From: Escherichia phage vB_EcoM_ESCO10
DNA length: 64,000 bases
Sequence record: OM386655.1
Reading direction: 5' to 3' (one strand)
Below, one piece after another: positions 22,550 through 60,492 of the stretch; the stretch's first letter is position 1; each line of letters starts with the position of its first letter. The position numbers and the translations under genes are program-made. The notes below the pieces were generated by a model. The model was given only the letters and a program-made list of their open reading frames with translations, made no database searches and had not been told where the DNA came from.

Positions 22550-22565
22550 GGAGGCCGAAGCCTCC
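22550..22565 (-). promoter_or_regulatory. intercistronic RNA hairpin GGAGGC-UUCG-GCCUCC just upstream of SD
   Basis: perfect 6-bp stem with UUCG loop on minus transcript; identical copy at 60477-60492. Confidence 0.5.
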
Positions 22566-23436: not shown

Positions 23437-23464
23437 AAACAAAAATGGGACTCCGAAGAGTCCC
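23437..23464 (-). terminator. intrinsic terminator
   Basis: GGGACUC-UUCG-GAGUCCC hairpin followed by UUUUUGUUU on minus strand. Confidence 0.6.
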
Positions 23465-30760: not shown

Positions 30761-31908
30761 TACTCTATCACAATTTCTTTCAAATATTTTTCAGGGATTT
30801 GGGCCTTATGATTTTTCAAGAACACAGAGTTAATCTGGTCTACGACAGTGTCATAATTAATACCGCCTGCGTACGCCTGCATAAGAATAGAGAACAAGCC
30901 AGGGAAGTCTTTGAGGATTAACTGTCCGGTAACGGCATAGTCCTTACGGTCACGCCCCTTGAGCTGAGAATATGCCGCTTCTAACAAGGCTAAAGATTGT
31001 TCTAAGTAGTCTAAATGGATACGTTCAAACGCATTGATTTTCTCGATGGCAAATGAATCCGTACTGAACAAACCTCGGAGGTCATCAGTTCCACCAGCCA
31101 CTACAACTTCAAACAACCGTTCGTTATTGTTAATGGAATCCTTAGTATGATGCAGTGCGCTATACCAAGCAGTTTTGAGTTTAAAGAACGTGCCATCTTT
31201 AAGTACAAAGATAAAGCCTTCAATACCCTCTTGTTTACGGATATCGCCAACAAAATCGCCTTCAGAGAGTTCGTAGCTTTTAACCAAATGCTTACGCAGA
31301 GCGCCATCTTTAAACAGTTCAGCGTAAGGGATATACTCGCCTGTTTCGTTATTACGAACGTTCAGTAAGATAAGGTTTGTTTCTTGGTAAGCCAACACAA
31401 TACGGTTAGTAGGGGCGACGTACTCAAGGTTGCATGTATATCCTGCTTTAGTAATTTCTTCTAAACGGGCAGCGAAGGCCTCGTTTTCAGGGAGACGAAG
31501 GAAACGTAAAGAATCATGCACCATTGATGAATGGATAGAGCCTTTAGATTTAACAGAAAGATACTGCCGGTCCATGAAGGTAGAAATCAAGGAACCATCT
31601 TCCTTAGCCATAACCAAGTCAATATTTTCCGGCGATAAATCCAGACCAATGGTCATAGGGTTTTCATCTAGATTAAAGAACTTTTGCATAGGACGAGCCG
31701 CAATACGTACGGGACCACTCTCGTCCATTTCAAACATAATGCCTCGGCACTCTAGTGCGCCGTCTTCCAACCAATCACTGTACGATGCATAGTTATAACT
31801 AAAGATGCGATAGTTGACTCCTAGCGCACTCTGGAAGTCTTTAAAGAAGAACTTAGATTTAGTCGAGTTTTTAACCAGGGCCATTAAGTTATCATATAAT
31901 TCAATCAT
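30760..31908 (-). CDS. rnlA: RNA ligase 1
   Basis: matches T4 Rnl1 (gp63): ...YRIFSYNYASYSDW...ECRGIMFE... Confidence 0.85.
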   Translation of the reverse strand: MIELYDNLMALVKNSTKSKFFFKDFQSALGVNYRIFSYNYASYSDWLEDGALECRGIMFEMDESGPVRIAARPMQKFFNLDENPMTIGLDLSPENIDLVMAKEDGSLISTFMDRQYLSVKSKGSIHSSMVHDSLRFLRLPENEAFAARLEEITKAGYTCNLEYVAPTNRIVLAYQETNLILLNVRNNETGEYIPYAELFKDGALRKHLVKSYELSEGDFVGDIRKQEGIEGFIFVLKDGTFFKLKTAWYSALHHTKDSINNNERLFEVVVAGGTDDLRGLFSTDSFAIEKINAFERIHLDYLEQSLALLEAAYSQLKGRDRKDYAVTGQLILKDFPGLFSILMQAYAGGINYDTVVDQINSVFLKNHKAQIPEKYLKEIVIE

Positions 31909-32318
31909 TGCTTTATCCTATGTTGGGTATTCCAAGGTGGATTAAATTTCTTTATGAACATTGGCTCTTCAAGAGACATGGTCTCAACTGACATAGTTCC
32001 AAGTTCGTTAGTCATTGACAGATTAAAGCACTGCCGTGCATAGAACTCTACCTTTTTACCTGCCATTAATGCTTCATGAATCAGAATGGACTTAGTCGAA
32101 TCTGACGTTTGGTCCTTACGATTAATAGCGGTTCGGTAGTAGTTGATGCGCTTACGAAGATTTTTAGTCTTCCCGACGTAGACTAGTATATCATCAACCG
32201 CTATAGCATATATGACATTTTGTTTATTTGGTACTGTGAGTGGAGCTATGGTGGCGTCATCTTGGAGTTCTAGGGTGACGTACTTGATAAAGCTAAATTC
32301 GTCTGCGATTTCTTTCAT
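31905..32318 (-). CDS. denA: endonuclease II (GIY-YIG family)
   Basis: matches T4 DenA from MKEIADE...; YVGKTKNLRKRINYYR motif; alternative upstream ATG at 32342. Confidence 0.85.
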   Translation of the reverse strand: MKEIADEFSFIKYVTLELQDDATIAPLTVPNKQNVIYAIAVDDILVYVGKTKNLRKRINYYRTAINRKDQTSDSTKSILIHEALMAGKKVEFYARQCFNLSMTNELGTMSVETMSLEEPMFIKKFNPPWNTQHRIKQ

Positions 32319-32326
32319 AGCAATAA

Positions 32327-32340
32327 GGGGCCGAAGCCCC
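32327..32340 (-). promoter_or_regulatory. RNA hairpin GGGGC-UUCG-GCCCC between SD and denA start codon (split ribosome-binding site)
   Basis: AAGGA SD, 14-nt hairpin, UUAUUGCU, AUG; same hairpin sequence as upstream of gene 38. Confidence 0.5.
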
Positions 32341-32345
32341 ATTCC

Positions 32346-33524
32346 TTAAAAATATTTCTTGTATGATGCCATTACTTTTTCATCGACATCATTATCAATT
32401 TGTGCTACTAAGTAAGAACTGATTTCCACTTCCTGAGGAGCTGCCTGTACTGCATCAGAGTTCAGGTATTCGCGAATCCAAGGGTAAGGATGTCGAGTAG
32501 GGGCATCAGTAATTGGACACGGTAATCCACACTGCTTCATACGCGAAACAGTCAAGTAATCGACAAAAGCACCCATGTTCTGGGTATTTAATCCTGGGCA
32601 GGTACCATCTTTGAATAGGTGAGCGGCCCATTCTTTTTCTTGTCGGTTAACTTCCATGAAAATATCAACTGCTTCTTGTTCACATTCTTGAGCAATTTTA
32701 ACCCATTCATCGCCATCTGTACCAAGTTGAAGTTGACGAATAATGTACTGAGTACCTTTAAGGTGGAGCTGCTCATCGCGTGCAATGAACTTCATAATCT
32801 TGGCATTACCTTCCATGATTTCCATGTTCTTATGGAAGTTAAAGGTGCATGCGAAAGATACGTAAAAACGAATAGCTTCCAAGGCGTTGATTACGTGCAG
32901 GCAGAGGTAAAGAGAACGCATTAGTTCACGTTTCCAATACATCTCATGCTCTATGGCATCTTCATTATCATCTTCGTCTGCGTTAATTTCTTTTTGGTAC
33001 TCAATATCAGCTTTAGCATTCTGCCAATATCTAGTTTTCTTTAAAACATCGTCATAATAACGACCAATAGATTCAGCACGTTTCATGATGGCGTCATCTA
33101 ACAGAATTTCATCAAATACCTTAGATGGGTCTGTATAGAGGTTACGCATGATATGGGTATACGAACGGGAGTGAATAGTTTCACTAAAGGTCCATGTTGC
33201 CACCCAAGTATCAAGGCTAGGGTCTGAAATCAAGGCCTGAAGTGCTGCAGAAGGAGCACGTCCCTGGATACTATCCAGAAGTGATTGATACTTCAGGTTA
33301 TTGGTAAAAATATTTTGCTGGAATTGTGGAAGCTTATTAAATTGAGCAGCATCCATCATCAAGTTAACTTCTTCTGGGCGCCAGAAAAAACTCAACTGCT
33401 TTTCACAAAGCTCTTCGAATACTTTATGACGTTGGATATCATAACGAGCAATACCCAATCCTGAACCAAAGAACATCGGTTCGACTAAAACATCAACTGG
33501 GGTGGTATTAAAAACTGTAGACAT
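32346..33524 (-). CDS. nrdB: ribonucleotide reductase small subunit
   Basis: matches T4 NrdB from MSTVFNT...; uninterrupted (no intron). Confidence 0.95.
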   Translation of the reverse strand: MSTVFNTTPVDVLVEPMFFGSGLGIARYDIQRHKVFEELCEKQLSFFWRPEEVNLMMDAAQFNKLPQFQQNIFTNNLKYQSLLDSIQGRAPSAALQALISDPSLDTWVATWTFSETIHSRSYTHIMRNLYTDPSKVFDEILLDDAIMKRAESIGRYYDDVLKKTRYWQNAKADIEYQKEINADEDDNEDAIEHEMYWKRELMRSLYLCLHVINALEAIRFYVSFACTFNFHKNMEIMEGNAKIMKFIARDEQLHLKGTQYIIRQLQLGTDGDEWVKIAQECEQEAVDIFMEVNRQEKEWAAHLFKDGTCPGLNTQNMGAFVDYLTVSRMKQCGLPCPITDAPTRHPYPWIREYLNSDAVQAAPQEVEISSYLVAQIDNDVDEKVMASYKKYF

Positions 33525-33577
33525 ATTATTCTCATTTGTTGGTGACTCATCCATGAGTCAATTATAATCAGATTTTC

Positions 33578-47573: not shown

Positions 47574-47581
47574 TATAAATA
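47574..47581 (+). promoter_or_regulatory. late promoter TATAAATA for genes 36-37
   Basis: exact match ~24 nt upstream of gene 36 ATG. Confidence 0.6.
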
Positions 47582-48272: not shown

Positions 48273-51200
48273 ATGGCTACTTTAAAAGCGATACAATTTA
48301 AAAGAAGTAAGACAGCTGGTGCCAAGCCTACTGTAGACCAGTTGGTTGAAGGTGAACTGGCTATTAACTTACGCGACCGTACGATTTATACAAAAACCGA
48401 CCAGAATCAGATTATTGACCTTGGCTTTGCTAAAGGTGGACAGGTTGATGGTGATATTCTCCAGAACGGCACATTTAACCTCAATGGTAATATGTTCGTT
48501 TACGCTGGTAAGTATATTGAATTCCTGCCTAAAACTGCGGGTAATGGCGCCTGGGCAAACCAACATTTAACTAAAGCTCCTATCTTTGCAGATTTAAGTT
48601 CAACTGCCTCAGTATCAGAATATCATCCTCTGATTAAGCAACGTTATAAAGACGGTACTTTTTCTGCTGGTACATTAGTAAGCGAAGGCTCATTTAGAGT
48701 TCATTATATTGATTCTACAGCTCCAGACAATTCTAAACACTGGGTCTTTAATCGAAATGGTAATTTCATCGTAGATTCTGGTAGTATTGAAGTTCGTACC
48801 GGTAATATTTCTGCTTCAGGCAATATTAACTCTGCTAATGGTATTATCACTGGTCCTGAAATTGTTACTAAAAATATTAATTTCAGTACAAAACCATTTA
48901 TAGCTAATGCCAACATTGGATATGATTGGGTTTCTTTACCTACTTGGGTTTATAACCCACCGGCTGATGGTTCTGATAATACTACTAACGGTTTAAACTA
49001 TTTGCGTAAATTGCGTGCATCAAGTGCATCAAGTATTTTCCATGAAATTGCTGATTGTCGAAAAGGCAAGCCACAAGAAATTTCCTGGTGGACCGGTGTA
49101 GGTCCGGCATCTTTCCAATGGGCGTTTGATACCTCTGGGCGTATTACCGCAGGTAAATCTATTTCAGTAGGTCTTCCTGATAACGGGGCAAATGGGCGTT
49201 ATCCTTTAGATTCAGCTATTTCTATTGGTATTGCCATCGGTGATAACGATACAGGTATTAAATGGGTCCGTGACGGTGTTTACGACCTGATGGCCAATGG
49301 TATTTCATCTGCTACTATTTTGAATAACGGTATTAATAGTACTAAAAAATTGATGGTTGGTTATAGCCGAGATTCAGGTTCTACTTGGGATTTCCCGAAT
49401 AATAACCAAGCAATGTTTACTGCGCGTACTGATGTTGATGGCAATAATAACGGCGATGGTCAGACTCATATCGGTTATAGCAGCAATGCTAAAATGTATC
49501 ACTATTTCCGTGGCGCGGGTCGTATGTCCGTTAGTATGGCCGAAGGGCTTATTGTTGAACCAGGAATTTTAGATATTAAAACCGGTTCCAATAGCGTTGC
49601 TATTAGAGCGGACGGAACAATTAACTCCACCCAGCGTATTTCTATGCGTACGGGCTTGTTTTTAAATGGTGATGATAATACTAATGCTTTATCGTTTAAA
49701 GCGCCTTCTGGTGTTGATGGTACTAAAACTATCAATTGGGACGCGGGTATTCGTAACGGTCAAAACAAAAACACTGTAACACTTAAAGCTTGGGGTAATT
49801 CATTTAATGCAGGCGGCGGTAACAGAGAAACTGTATTTGAAGTATCGGATTCACAAGGTTATTATTTTTATGCCCAGCGTACCAATCCGGCCGTTGCCGG
49901 AGGTATAGGACCTGTCAACTTTAAGTTTAACGGAACTATTGAAACAGGTCATATCATAGGCCTTGGTGATATTACTGCTTCCGGTACAGGTTCTTTTGGT
50001 GGCAATGTTACCATGACTAATGGCCTGTTTGTCCAAGGTGGTTCTTCTATTACCGGCCAAGTTAAAATCGGTGGAACAGCTGATGCATTAAGAATTTGGA
50101 ATGCTGAATATGGCGCTATTTTCCGTCGTTCCGAAGATAAGCTTTATATTATTCCAACTCCGCAGAATGCTGGAGAATCAGGTGGTATTTCTAATTTACG
50201 TCCGTTCTACATTACATTAAGTACTGGTCAAGTTTCTATGGACCATGTAGTAGATATCGGCGGTGGTAGATTTAAAGTAGATACAACTGGTACTACGGCT
50301 GGCCAACGTATTACAGTTAATGCAGCAAGCGATGCTGTTGTATTAAATGCCCCTAATCAAGAATCATCCAACTTTATCCAGGGTCGTAAAGCCAATGTTA
50401 CTAAATGGTATCTTGGTATTGGCGATGGTGGTAACGTTGTTCGTATGCACAACTATACATATGCGCACGGTATTGCGTTGAATGCTGATACTGTTGATAT
50501 AACCAAGGCGCTTAAAATTGGTTCCGATATTCGTATTGGTCTTGATGGCAATATTACAGGCAGCACTGCATTAGAAAACTTTAAAAACCTGAACACCACT
50601 TTAAACCGTAAAGTTAATGTCGGAACTTGGTCGGGTGGTGCGGCTGCGGGTTGGTATAAATTTGCTACTGTAACTATGCCTCAAAGTGTGGCTACTGCCC
50701 AATTTAAAATTACTGGCGGTAACGGATATAATGTCAATTCATCGGAACAAGCCACAATTACTGAAATAGTTCTTAGAACTGGTAATAACAACCCTAAGGG
50801 TATTAATGCCACCTTATGGGCGCGCACAGGTAATGGATTTACTAATATAGCAACAATTAATACCTCCGGCGATGACTATGATGTTTACCTATACGTTGGA
50901 ACTTACGCGGACAAACTTATAGTCGAATATGATTATACAGCAAACACCCGTTATATTTCGGTAGTCGGTCTTAATGATGTGAATCAAACCCCAGTCGCGG
51001 AATTACCTACTGGTCACCAGCGCGGACAAGTGTATATGATGTATTCTGATGCTCAGATACCTTATCCGGTGGGTGCTCCGATTCCATGGCCGAGCGATTC
51101 AGTTCCAGCCGGATTTGCTTTAATGGAAGGTCAAACCTTTGATACCGGAGCTTATCCTAAACTAGCTGCAGCTTATCCGTCGGGTACTATTCCGGATATG

Positions 51201-51821
51201 CGTGGACAGACTATTAAAGGTAAACCAAGTGGTCGTGCAGTGTTGAGTGCAGAAGCTGATGGTATTAAGTCTCACAACCATGGCGGCTCTGTTGCGAGTA
51301 CTGATTTAGGTACTAAAAACACCTCATCATTTGATTATGGTACTAAAAACACCTCATCATTTGATTATGGTACTAAAACCAGCAACACAACAGGTAACCA
51401 TAACCATAGCGTTAGTGGCAATACTGGCGCAGCAGGTAATCATCAGCACTCACAGACAGGTCCAAGAGGTCCTAATAATCAACCAACAGGAATATTTCCT
51501 AATGGAGCTACTCAAATTAGTGGAACCCAGGTTGTTTCTTTTGGCATAAGCAACGGTGTTGTGCCTGGTGTAAACCAATATATTGCAAAGTCATCGACAG
51601 AAGGTAACCATACACACTCTTGGTCTGGAACTACAAATACCACCGGTAACCATGCCCACACCGTTGGTATCGGTGCTCATAGTCATTCGGTCGGTATTGG
51701 TGCTCATAGTCATTCGGTTGCAATCGGGTCCCACGGTCATGGTCTTACCATAAATAGTACAGGTAATACAGAAAACACGGTTAAAAACATTGCTTTTAAC
51801 TATATCGTTCGCTTAGCATAA
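48273..51821 (+). CDS. 37: long tail fiber distal subunit gp37 (receptor-binding tip with His-box repeats)
   Basis: 1182 aa; C-terminal G-N-H-x-H-S repeats; followed by gene 38. Confidence 0.9.
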   Translation: MATLKAIQFKRSKTAGAKPTVDQLVEGELAINLRDRTIYTKTDQNQIIDLGFAKGGQVDGDILQNGTFNLNGNMFVYAGKYIEFLPKTAGNGAWANQHLTKAPIFADLSSTASVSEYHPLIKQRYKDGTFSAGTLVSEGSFRVHYIDSTAPDNSKHWVFNRNGNFIVDSGSIEVRTGNISASGNINSANGIITGPEIVTKNINFSTKPFIANANIGYDWVSLPTWVYNPPADGSDNTTNGLNYLRKLRASSASSIFHEIADCRKGKPQEISWWTGVGPASFQWAFDTSGRITAGKSISVGLPDNGANGRYPLDSAISIGIAIGDNDTGIKWVRDGVYDLMANGISSATILNNGINSTKKLMVGYSRDSGSTWDFPNNNQAMFTARTDVDGNNNGDGQTHIGYSSNAKMYHYFRGAGRMSVSMAEGLIVEPGILDIKTGSNSVAIRADGTINSTQRISMRTGLFLNGDDNTNALSFKAPSGVDGTKTINWDAGIRNGQNKNTVTLKAWGNSFNAGGGNRETVFEVSDSQGYYFYAQRTNPAVAGGIGPVNFKFNGTIETGHIIGLGDITASGTGSFGGNVTMTNGLFVQGGSSITGQVKIGGTADALRIWNAEYGAIFRRSEDKLYIIPTPQNAGESGGISNLRPFYITLSTGQVSMDHVVDIGGGRFKVDTTGTTAGQRITVNAASDAVVLNAPNQESSNFIQGRKANVTKWYLGIGDGGNVVRMHNYTYAHGIALNADTVDITKALKIGSDIRIGLDGNITGSTALENFKNLNTTLNRKVNVGTWSGGAAAGWYKFATVTMPQSVATAQFKITGGNGYNVNSSEQATITEIVLRTGNNNPKGINATLWARTGNGFTNIATINTSGDDYDVYLYVGTYADKLIVEYDYTANTRYISVVGLNDVNQTPVAELPTGHQRGQVYMMYSDAQIPYPVGAPIPWPSDSVPAGFALMEGQTFDTGAYPKLAAAYPSGTIPDMRGQTIKGKPSGRAVLSAEADGIKSHNHGGSVASTDLGTKNTSSFDYGTKNTSSFDYGTKTSNTTGNHNHSVSGNTGAAGNHQHSQTGPRGPNNQPTGIFPNGATQISGTQVVSFGISNGVVPGVNQYIAKSSTEGNHTHSWSGTTNTTGNHAHTVGIGAHSHSVGIGAHSHSVAIGSHGHGLTINSTGNTENTVKNIAFNYIVRLA
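51309..51368 (+). repeat. perfect 30-bp tandem duplication inside gene 37
   Basis: ggtactaaaaacacctcatcatttgattat x2 encoding GTKNTSSFDY twice. Confidence 0.9.
51663..51716 (+). repeat. 27-bp near-perfect tandem repeat in gene 37 His-box region
   Basis: two units encoding VGIGAHSHS with two synonymous differences. Confidence 0.8.
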
Positions 51822-51826
51822 GGAGA

Positions 51827-51840
51827 GGGGCTTCGGCCCC
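51827..51840 (+). promoter_or_regulatory. RNA hairpin GGGGC-UUCG-GCCCC between SD and gene 38 start codon (split ribosome-binding site)
   Basis: AAGGAG at 51820-51825, hairpin, AUG at 51849 (23-nt spacing, ~9 nt when folded). Confidence 0.55.
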
Positions 51841-51848
51841 TTCTAAAT

Positions 51849-52391
51849 ATGAAAATCTATCATTTTTATTTCGATACAAAAGAATTTTACAAAGAAGAAA
51901 ATTACAAACCGGTTAAAGGTCTTGGTCTTCCTGCTCATTCAACAATTAAAAAACCTTTAGAACCTAAAGAAGGATACGCAGTTGTATTTGATGAACGTAC
52001 CCAAGACTGGATTTATGAAGAAGACCATCGAGGCAAACGTGCATGGACTTTTAATAAAGAAGAAATTTTTATAAGTGACATTGGAAGTCCGGTTGGTATA
52101 ACTTTTGATGAGCCGGGCGAATTTGATATATGGACAGATGATGGCTGGAAAGAAGATGAAACATATAAACGAGTAATGATTCGCAATCAAAAAATCGAGG
52201 GGTTTTATAAAGAATTCCAGGTATTAAGTAATATGGTTGAAGCCTCAGTCGCCGATAAGAAAGAAAAATTCTATCACCAGAATCTTAAACGTTTCTTTGC
52301 TCTTTTAGAAAAACATGAACACTTGGGTGGTGAATTCCCGGCTTGGCCAGAAAAAGATAAAAAGCCTTGGTATAAGTGCTTTTTCAAATAA
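51849..52391 (+). CDS. 38: gp38 long-tail-fiber assembly chaperone (T4 type)
   Basis: matches T4 gp38 as remembered (MKIYH.YFDTKEFYKEENYKPVKGLGLPAHS...). Confidence 0.85.
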   Translation: MKIYHFYFDTKEFYKEENYKPVKGLGLPAHSTIKKPLEPKEGYAVVFDERTQDWIYEEDHRGKRAWTFNKEEIFISDIGSPVGITFDEPGEFDIWTDDGWKEDETYKRVMIRNQKIEGFYKEFQVLSNMVEASVADKKEKFYHQNLKRFFALLEKHEHLGGEFPAWPEKDKKPWYKCFFK

Positions 52392-52402
52392 TACTTCTAT
52401 AT

Positions 52403-52410
52403 TATAAATA
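52403..52410 (+). promoter_or_regulatory. late promoter TATAAATA for holin t
   Basis: exact match 18 nt upstream of t ATG. Confidence 0.6.
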
Positions 52411-57473: not shown

Positions 57474-57554
57474 TCACAGGCGTCCGAAGACGCCGGTAAT
57501 TTTAAGATTATTACGATGCCATTGCATCACATGTTCGTTATAGAAATTACTCAT
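57474..57554 (-). CDS. stp: Stp peptide (26 aa)
   Basis: hand-translated [26 protein letters not shown], close to remembered T4 Stp; below track cutoff. Confidence 0.7.
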
Positions 57555-60476: not shown

Positions 60477-60492
60477 GGAGGCCGAAGCCTCC
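60477..60492 (-). promoter_or_regulatory. intercistronic RNA hairpin GGAGGC-UUCG-GCCUCC just upstream of SD
   Basis: identical to element at 22550-22565. Confidence 0.5.

Follow-up and report, generated by a model that had tools for sequence, protein, structure and literature searches.

Hairpins between Shine-Dalgarno sequence and start codon at gene 38 and denA of Escherichia phage vB_EcoM_ESCO10: a known split ribosome-binding site and a candidate counterpart

We analyzed a stretch of 64,000 nucleotides (nt) from Escherichia phage vB_EcoM_ESCO10 (OM386655.1), referred to below as the window, with respect to two gene junctions at which a stable hairpin stands between a Shine-Dalgarno (SD) sequence and the start codon of the next gene. 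One is the junction of gene 37 (g37) with gene 38 on the plus strand, the other that of nrdB with denA on the minus strand. A first-pass annotation of the window had reported that the same 14-nt hairpin occurs at both; its coordinates and the recurrence of the 14-mer on the minus strand all held when checked against the sequence. The relevant features are as follows.

48273-51821, plus strand: g37, open reading frame (ORF), identity confirmed.
51819-51825, plus strand: gene 37 stop TAA (51819-51821) overlapping the gene 38 SD UAAGGAG (AAGGAG at 51820-51825); predicted duplex with the 16S 3' end of -9.0 kcal/mol.
51825-51842, plus strand: gene 38 hairpin with core at 51827-51840, extendable by A-U and G-U pairs to 7 base pairs (bp); -12.5 kcal/mol.
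51849-52391, plus strand: gene 38, tail-fibre assembly chaperone, 180 amino acids (aa), start ATG at 51849-51851.
32346-33554, minus strand: nrdB, ORF, identity confirmed.
32343-32348, minus strand: nrdB stop TAA (32348-32346) overlapping an SD-like AAGGA (32347-32343); predicted anti-SD duplex of -5.9 kcal/mol.
32340-32342, minus strand: in-frame upstream ATG, judged not to be the denA start; 0 nt from AAGGA, with its G forming the first stem base.
32327-32340, minus strand: denA hairpin GGGGC-UUCG-GCCCC; -9.6 kcal/mol.
31905-32318, minus strand: denA, endonuclease II, 137 aa, conserved start ATG at 32318-32316.

The 180-aa product of gene 38 shares 92% of its residues with T4 gp38, which is of the 183-aa chaperone type, while the 137-aa DenA ORF matches T4 endonuclease II (EndoII; PDB 2WSH) at E = 2e-66 and is only ~76% identical to T4 DenA. 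Around denA, the window has 95-96% identity to Dhakavirus phages (IME08, KIT01 and QL01 among them), and the closest match of the gene 37/38 region is phage C6 (90%). Gene 38 of the window is the T4 element in a Dhakavirus-like genome bearing a T4-type tail-fibre module.

Layout of the two junctions and the gene 38 site

The 14-mer GGGGCTTCGGCCCC (GGGGC-UUCG-GCCCC as RNA) was present in two exact copies in the window, at 51827-51840 on the plus strand and 32327-32340 on the minus strand, and two further copies, at 22551 and 60478, carried a compensatory double change (GAGGC..GCCTC). When up to 2 mismatches were allowed, the window contained 4 copies compared to 0.05 in shuffled sequences, and 0 of 100 shuffles reached 4. 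Both hairpins consist of a C(UUCG)G tetraloop on a short G-C stem. The first-pass annotation had overlooked that the two junctions also have their whole geometry in common: each comprises a stop TAA within TAAGGA, 2 nt, the 14-nt hairpin, 8 nt and ATG, with a stop-to-start distance of 27 nt in both.

The linear distance from SD to AUG was 23 nt at gene 38 and 24 nt at denA, in each case exceeding 15 nt. Once the hairpin is folded, the remaining spacing is ~5-6 nt at gene 38 and 2 + 8 = ~10 nt at denA. For gene 38, the earlier claim that folding would restore normal spacing is borne out by this anatomy, with ~6 nt left after removal of the 14-nt hairpin. The tails between hairpin and ATG (UUCUAAAU and UUAUUGCU) contained no SD at 4-12 nt. 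The initiation regions of gene 38 and denA (41-43 nt) were more stable than shuffles (z = -2.75 and -2.04), and a window-wide scan for an SD, a hairpin and an ATG lacking a canonical SD returned these two as the sole convincing cases. Predicted lower stems joining the AUG to upstream bases were given no weight, as they are A-U-rich and, by inspection, that of gene 38 is not kept in ESCO47. A search of the whole window against Rfam returned nothing at the gathering threshold, and SCARNA4, the sole match at E < 1 near the sites, fell on the opposite strand and was dismissed as due to chance.

In the 60 nt compared 5' of the gene 38 start codon, the window matches T4 at every base. The T4 sequence is a documented split ribosome-binding site (RBS), in which a hairpin cuts a 22-nt spacing to 5 nt; a hairpin likewise takes the spacing at T4 gene 25 from 27 nt to 11 nt, and hairpin-destabilizing mutations reduce initiation at both genes (PMC3014915). 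PMC7297116 cites Gold 1988 and Nivinskas 1999 in this connection. The window junction displayed no difference from the T4 site: SD and hairpin are shared, and so is the reduction in spacing from 22-23 nt to ~5 nt. The link that the first-pass annotation drew between gene 38 and the structured initiation region described in T4 is therefore well founded, and, as judged by sequence identity, the gene 38 half of the finding is already known as the T4 split site.

Since searches of IMG/VR with gp38 gave 3 loci only, the comparison of gene 38 was made with GenBank phage records. Stem variants in relatives were compensatory (GGGAC/GTCCC and GGGCC/GGCCC), and UAAGGAG was kept. A window scan found no late promoter TATAAATA between 47574 and 51849, indicating that gene 38 is read from the g36-g37 transcript. 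Salmonella phage Lv5cm (MZ150757; L032, 340-400) possesses a fragment matching ~13 codons near the gene 38 5' end (TTATTTTGACACAAAAGAATTTTACAAAGAAGAAAATTA) that is joined directly to the hairpin and stands upstream of an intact gene 38, in place of UAAGGAG; the sequence was either duplicated or rearranged at this locus, or wrongly assembled. In the stretch taken as Citrobacter phage Moon (L030), GGGGCTTCGGCCCC is kept after the stops TAA TAG, and a normal SD follows the hairpin (CTCTGAGGAAACT-ATG).

Conservation of the nrdB-denA junction and the start of denA

We drew nrdB-denA junctions from IMG/VR and GenBank and obtained 15 distinct sequences, representing at least 8 named genera, among them Dhakavirus, Tequatrovirus, Moonvirus, Jiaodavirus, Winklervirus, Gelderlandvirus and Marfavirus together with further IMG/VR lineages. 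AAGG, usually AAGGA, lay directly 3' of the nrdB stop in all 15. A hairpin was likewise present in 15 of 15, with a loop of UUCG, UUUG or, in T4-type phages, GCAA/GUAA, and with a 5-nt loop in lineage L026; the T4 junction, for example, reads TAAGGAG-U-GGGCC-GCAA-GGCCC-AUUUUAUU-AUG. The gap from nrdB stop to denA ATG measured 26-28 nt (28 nt by annotation in S16), with one exception of 32 nt. The tails were pyrimidine-rich, extending 7-10 nt past the G-C core and 3-10 nt past the longest pairable stem, and in none of the 15 junctions was an SD found 3' of the hairpin. In a loop-centred, ungapped alignment of the stem, 97.2% of cells were paired and 4 of 6 pairs exhibited changes on both sides. 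The covariation score was 0.59 compared to 0.18 in shuffles, 0 of 500 of which reached 0.59, and it collapsed when the partner was slid as a second control.

Because this architecture is conserved with covariation across T-even-type genera, a split site is the best reading of the denA junction, and the architecture that the first-pass annotation had proposed there gains support from the retained AAGG, the SD-free tails and the covarying stem. In every respect that can be judged from sequence, denA resembles a third split site beside those of genes 38 and 25, and it would apparently be a new one: no description of the denA junction was found in the searchable literature, beyond whose reach the key subscription papers lie. 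In the records of Klebsiella phage Metamorpho and Citrobacter phage Moon, an RBS is annotated for the genes beside denA and none for denA itself, and standard RBS finders are evidently blind to the site.

The first-pass annotation had also raised an alternative denA start at the in-frame upstream ATG (32342), which corresponds to GTG in T4. If DenA started there, the hairpin would be coding sequence and there would be no split site. Such starts are annotated: the GenBank and RefSeq records of IME08 (L049 and L050) give a 145-aa DenA from the upstream ATG, T4 RefSeq NC_000866.4 (137890-138000) gives 144 aa from a GTG at the equivalent position, and the codon is in frame in both lineages. Nevertheless, the annotated upstream codon begins 3 nt past the nrdB stop, inside the hairpin region; no nucleotide separates it from the SD, and its G sits in the stem. 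Nor is the codon conserved, being CAG, GAG, AAG, the stop TAG or out of frame in other genera. The 8 extra residues are unconserved as protein (MGLRPLIA compared to VGRKAHFI), whereas the RNA stem is conserved.

The downstream ATG, in contrast, is the annotated denA start in five other genera, and from it DenA begins with MK in nearly all lineages (MN or MQ in three), commonly as MKEIA or MKDIA. The alignment with T4 EndoII also starts at this downstream Met, and the experimental enzyme is the 136-aa MKEIATE form, numbered accordingly at K12 and E118 (PDB 2WSH; PMC2764454). We consequently regard initiation at the upstream codon as very improbable, and the alternative start as a claim that the spacing, the stem and the lack of conservation all argue against. 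The upstream denA starts of T4 RefSeq and IME08 are most likely longest-ORF artefacts.

Probable split sites, possible transcript-level roles and known systems

We consider it probable, although well short of established, that gene 38 and denA each have a split (non-contiguous) ribosome-binding site, placed at a compact junction within a polycistronic mRNA. The SD shares bases with the upstream stop (UAAGGAG after g37, UAAGGAA after nrdB), a very stable C(UUCG)G hairpin follows 1-2 nt past the SD, and the AUG lies 8 nt past the hairpin. The folded hairpin would be looped out of the 30S mRNA track, reducing the linear 23-24 nt between SD and AUG to an effective ~5-6 nt for gene 38 and ~10 nt for denA, and thereby permitting initiation. 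At denA the hairpin would enhance, or be needed for, DenA translation. The same hairpins may also act on the transcript after nrdB or g37, as a 3' exonuclease barrier or a weak attenuator. Given such a transcript-level role, the split site might have come about as an adjustment to an intercistronic hairpin that was there already: where a junction is very tight, the SD would fall 5' of the hairpin, which would thereby also bridge SD and AUG. A role at the transcript 3' end was not considered in the first-pass annotation.

Several observations weigh against this interpretation. The denA SD in the window is weak (AAGGA, -5.9 kcal/mol), an effective spacing of ~10 nt is among the longest that are useful, and the predicted folds weakly pair parts of the SD and AUG flanks. 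No experimental data on denA initiation were found in the searchable literature, and the SD enrichment in IMG/VR described below was computed without a correction for relatedness. Relatives also depart from the arrangement. At the g37/g38 junction of L030 (541-600, IMGVR_UViG_2706796299), the hairpin is followed by GAGGAAACT-ATG, and in RB49-like denA, too, a normal SD comes after the hairpin. One IMG/VR lineage, L025 (IMGVR_UViG_2974786931, 530-606), has neither hairpin nor gap, and its nrdB stop and denA start overlap as ATGA. DenA can therefore be made via termination-reinitiation coupling, and the overlap implies that denA would be translationally coupled to nrdB in the L025 lineage.

A different account would cast the hairpins mainly as weak intrinsic terminators or attenuators, or as 3'-exonuclease barriers stabilizing the nrdB and g37 mRNAs, with the purine run being incidental and with DenA and gp38 produced mostly by termination-reinitiation 27 nt further on. 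The ATGA overlap of L025 and the hairpins retained ahead of a contiguous SD in Moon gene 38 and RB49-like denA both fit this account, as do the other UUCG hairpins of the window, which precede normal SDs or U-tracts, and the terminator activity of stem-loops in T4-type intergenic cassettes (PMC2839356). The denA hairpin passed a lenient terminator scan (5 T in 8; tail TTATTGCTAT), and relatives offer better U-tracts (CCCC-TTTTTTAAT in S16, GGCCC-ATTTTATT in T4), although across relatives these range from good (TTTTTT in S16) to poor. The g37/38 hairpin, while annotated as a putative terminator in the MM02 record, has a poor U-tract and failed the scan. We found no promoter in the 27-nt gaps, the nearest late promoters being at 47574 and 52403, a setting that does not suit a terminator. 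Gene 38 and denA thus both need read-through, which at gene 38, having no promoter of its own, must be efficient; together with the poor U-tract, this means that its hairpin cannot be a strong terminator.

Other features of the junctions are also difficult to reconcile with an incidental purine run. The AAGG after the nrdB stop is invariant despite the fact that only TAA is coding and adjacent bases vary, none of the 15 junctions offers an SD 3' of the hairpin, and the length of the gap is constrained. For the identical T4 gene 38 sequence, moreover, split-site function is the published interpretation. We therefore view a purely transcript-level account as unlikely, yet as one that is largely compatible with the split-site explanation if taken as a second function of the hairpins. 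Bridging cannot be the sole or original function of the hairpin, given that Moon gene 38 and RB49-like denA retain it alongside a contiguous SD, and because these relatives keep it with an ordinary SD on its 3' side, the hairpins probably act at the mRNA 3' end too. Taken together, we infer that they are general intercistronic elements with a dual role.

Among known systems, denA can be compared with T4 gene 25, whose site is conserved among close T-even phages (PMC3014915). The 26-25 junction (Nivinskas 1999; Malys and Nivinskas 2009) carries an intercistronic hairpin between SD and AUG, as at denA, with an effective spacing of 11 nt compared to the ~10 nt of denA. In contrast to the gene 25 hairpin, which includes alternative SD-like motifs and does not belong to the minimal UUCG type, that of denA is a G-C-rich tetraloop hairpin of 4-7 bp placed directly after a stop-overlapping SD; gene 25 itself lies outside the window.

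Both window hairpins fit the T4 C(UUCG)G class by loop, G-C stem and intercistronic position, but what defines that class is thermodynamic stability and not any part played in initiation. The 1988 report of C(UUCG)G hairpins is said to be that of Tuerk et al. Such hairpins are abundant in T4 mRNA, according to that report as summarized in PMC4371310. T4-type terminators and the stem-loops of PeSL cassettes are likewise G-C-rich (GGGG...CCCC) intergenic stem-loops, some with U-rich tails, and an intergenic PeSL cassette combines the stem-loop with a strong sigma-70-like early promoter and an AT-rich region (PMC2839356). In contrast, the window junctions are without a promoter, that of gene 38 is without a U-tract, and the downstream genes rely on read-through. 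Escherichia coli thrS and rpmE (PMC7297116) similarly tolerate a stable hairpin in the ribosome-binding region, where it organizes the elements of that region. Their hairpin, however, is an operator for a protein and lies between an upstream enhancer and an SD at normal spacing, whereas those of the window part SD from AUG, with no binding protein indicated.

The shared 14-mer and related hairpins in the window and in IMG/VR

The first-pass annotation had viewed the identical hairpins as the same device at a late and an early gene. The part of this claim that concerns architecture stands, as denA shares the split-site layout, but the identity of the 14-mer does not tie the two genes together. 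Convergence on the small hairpin of greatest stability accounts for it best, and not common regulation: T4 keeps the gene 38 hairpin but has GGGCC-GCAA-GGCCC at denA, the gene 38 module is T4-like (92% at the aa level) while DenA is only ~76% identical, the window has many C(UUCG)G hairpins in intergenic positions, and the 14-mer also follows TAAGGA in the 104 stretches described below.

We likewise questioned whether the two copies might derive from a recently duplicated or mobile junction cassette moved by recombination, in the manner of PeSL. Both loci contain TAAGGA, a 16-nt identical block (GGGGCTTCGGCCCCTT) and ATGAAA at equal spacing; the gene 37/38 module looks horizontally acquired, given the 92% identity of gp38 to T4 compared to ~76% for DenA; and PeSL stem-loops mediate shuffling in RB49-type phages. 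The junctions nevertheless agree only in functional elements, namely TAAGGA, the hairpin with two further T, and ATGAAA; their variable parts of 2 nt and 6 nt differ, as does every flank. The denA hairpin, which covaries in all genera, is ancestral at its locus, T4 has different hairpins at its two loci, and the 27-nt gaps lack a sigma-70 promoter (no -35/-10), a defining part of PeSL. The 14-mer is also the commonest variant in unrelated phages. A duplicated or mobile cassette was rejected on these grounds, foremost the confinement of identity to functional elements, the differing T4 hairpins and the missing promoter, and we consider it highly improbable.

The exact module TAAGGA-NN-GGGGCTTCGGCCCC was found in 104 IMG/VR stretches (L051-L154), mostly on contigs not recognisably T4-like. 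Some of the 104 are split-site-like, in that an ORF ends at the TAA, no downstream SD is present and an ATG lies 5-15 nt past the hairpin (e.g. L052, L061, L065, L079, L087, L096, L110 and L112). In others the AGGA is the 5' arm of a longer stem before a normal AGGAGG SD, and still others are terminator-like. We also sampled IMG/VR for GGGGCUUCGGCCCC followed by 5-10 nt and ATG; figures refer to the matches listed, and the statistics ignore kinship. With these limits, an SD-like motif stood 5' of the hairpin in 23 of 57 matches with an ORF of at least 50 codons compared to 6 of 47 without one (p = 0.002), and the difference persisted when the motif had to lie outside any stem extension (15/57 compared to 3/47, p = 0.009). 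The cases with SD, hairpin and ATG include several unrelated gene families. This enrichment of an upstream SD is only suggestive.

One ORF family in IMG/VR, mostly of ~194 aa and beginning MSTVAN, MPDYAN or MPTVAN (L168, L175, L178, L189, L202, L225, L229, L234 and L240), has an SD-like motif (TAAGGG or TAGGAG) 5' of this same UUCG hairpin and an ATG 9-10 nt after it, amid variable flanks. Judged by this pattern, the family may possess another conserved split ribosome site.

We tentatively raise the possibility that a stop-overlapping SD, a UUCG hairpin, ~8 nt and an AUG form a widespread modular phage device, one that would fix the coupling ratio of neighbouring genes while insulating or stabilizing the upstream cistron. 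If so, a terminating or incoming 30S subunit would be held by the stop-overlapping SD beside the next AUG, giving, for instance, low DenA per NrdB. It would follow that denA is mis-annotated at its start in T4 RefSeq and IME08. DenA degrades host DNA, and its dose relative to NrdB is therefore a reasonable biological question. Accounts of split sites usually name just two, those of T4 genes 38 and 25; another, conserved and covarying across genera in an early nuclease gene, would indicate a recurrent solution at tight junctions, and the IMG/VR matches suggest the same module in many uncultivated phages. Such starts would be missed or extended by gene callers and RBS models built on the premise of a contiguous SD.

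The window contains at least 9 C(UUCG)G hairpins on the coding strand, 2 of which separate an SD from an AUG. Three of the remainder stand between genes on the minus strand, 1-4 nt 5' of a normal GAGGAA SD:

22550-22565, minus strand: intercistronic hairpin GGAGGC-UUCG-GCCUCC, then a contiguous SD (GAGGAAAATATTATG); same hairpin class, not a split site.
60477-60492, minus strand: intercistronic hairpin GGAGGC-UUCG-GCCUCC, then a contiguous SD (GAGGAATTATG); same hairpin class.
57479-57494, minus strand: intercistronic hairpin GGCGUC-UUCG-GACGCC, then a contiguous SD (GAGGAAAATATG); same hairpin class.

The hairpins at 22550 and 60477 are an identical pair (GGAGGCUUCGGCCUCC) with GGAGG within the 5' arm. 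Terminator-like UUCG hairpins with U-tracts were found at 23445, 39230 and 47546. At the last of these, the segment 47546-47581 on the plus strand comprises the hairpin and its U-tract (AGGAACCUUCGGGUUCCU-UUUUCGUUUC) and, directly after them, the late-promoter motif TATAAATA at 47574, upstream of gene 36. A second TATAAATA lies at 52403-52410 on the plus strand, just upstream of the holin gene t (52429).

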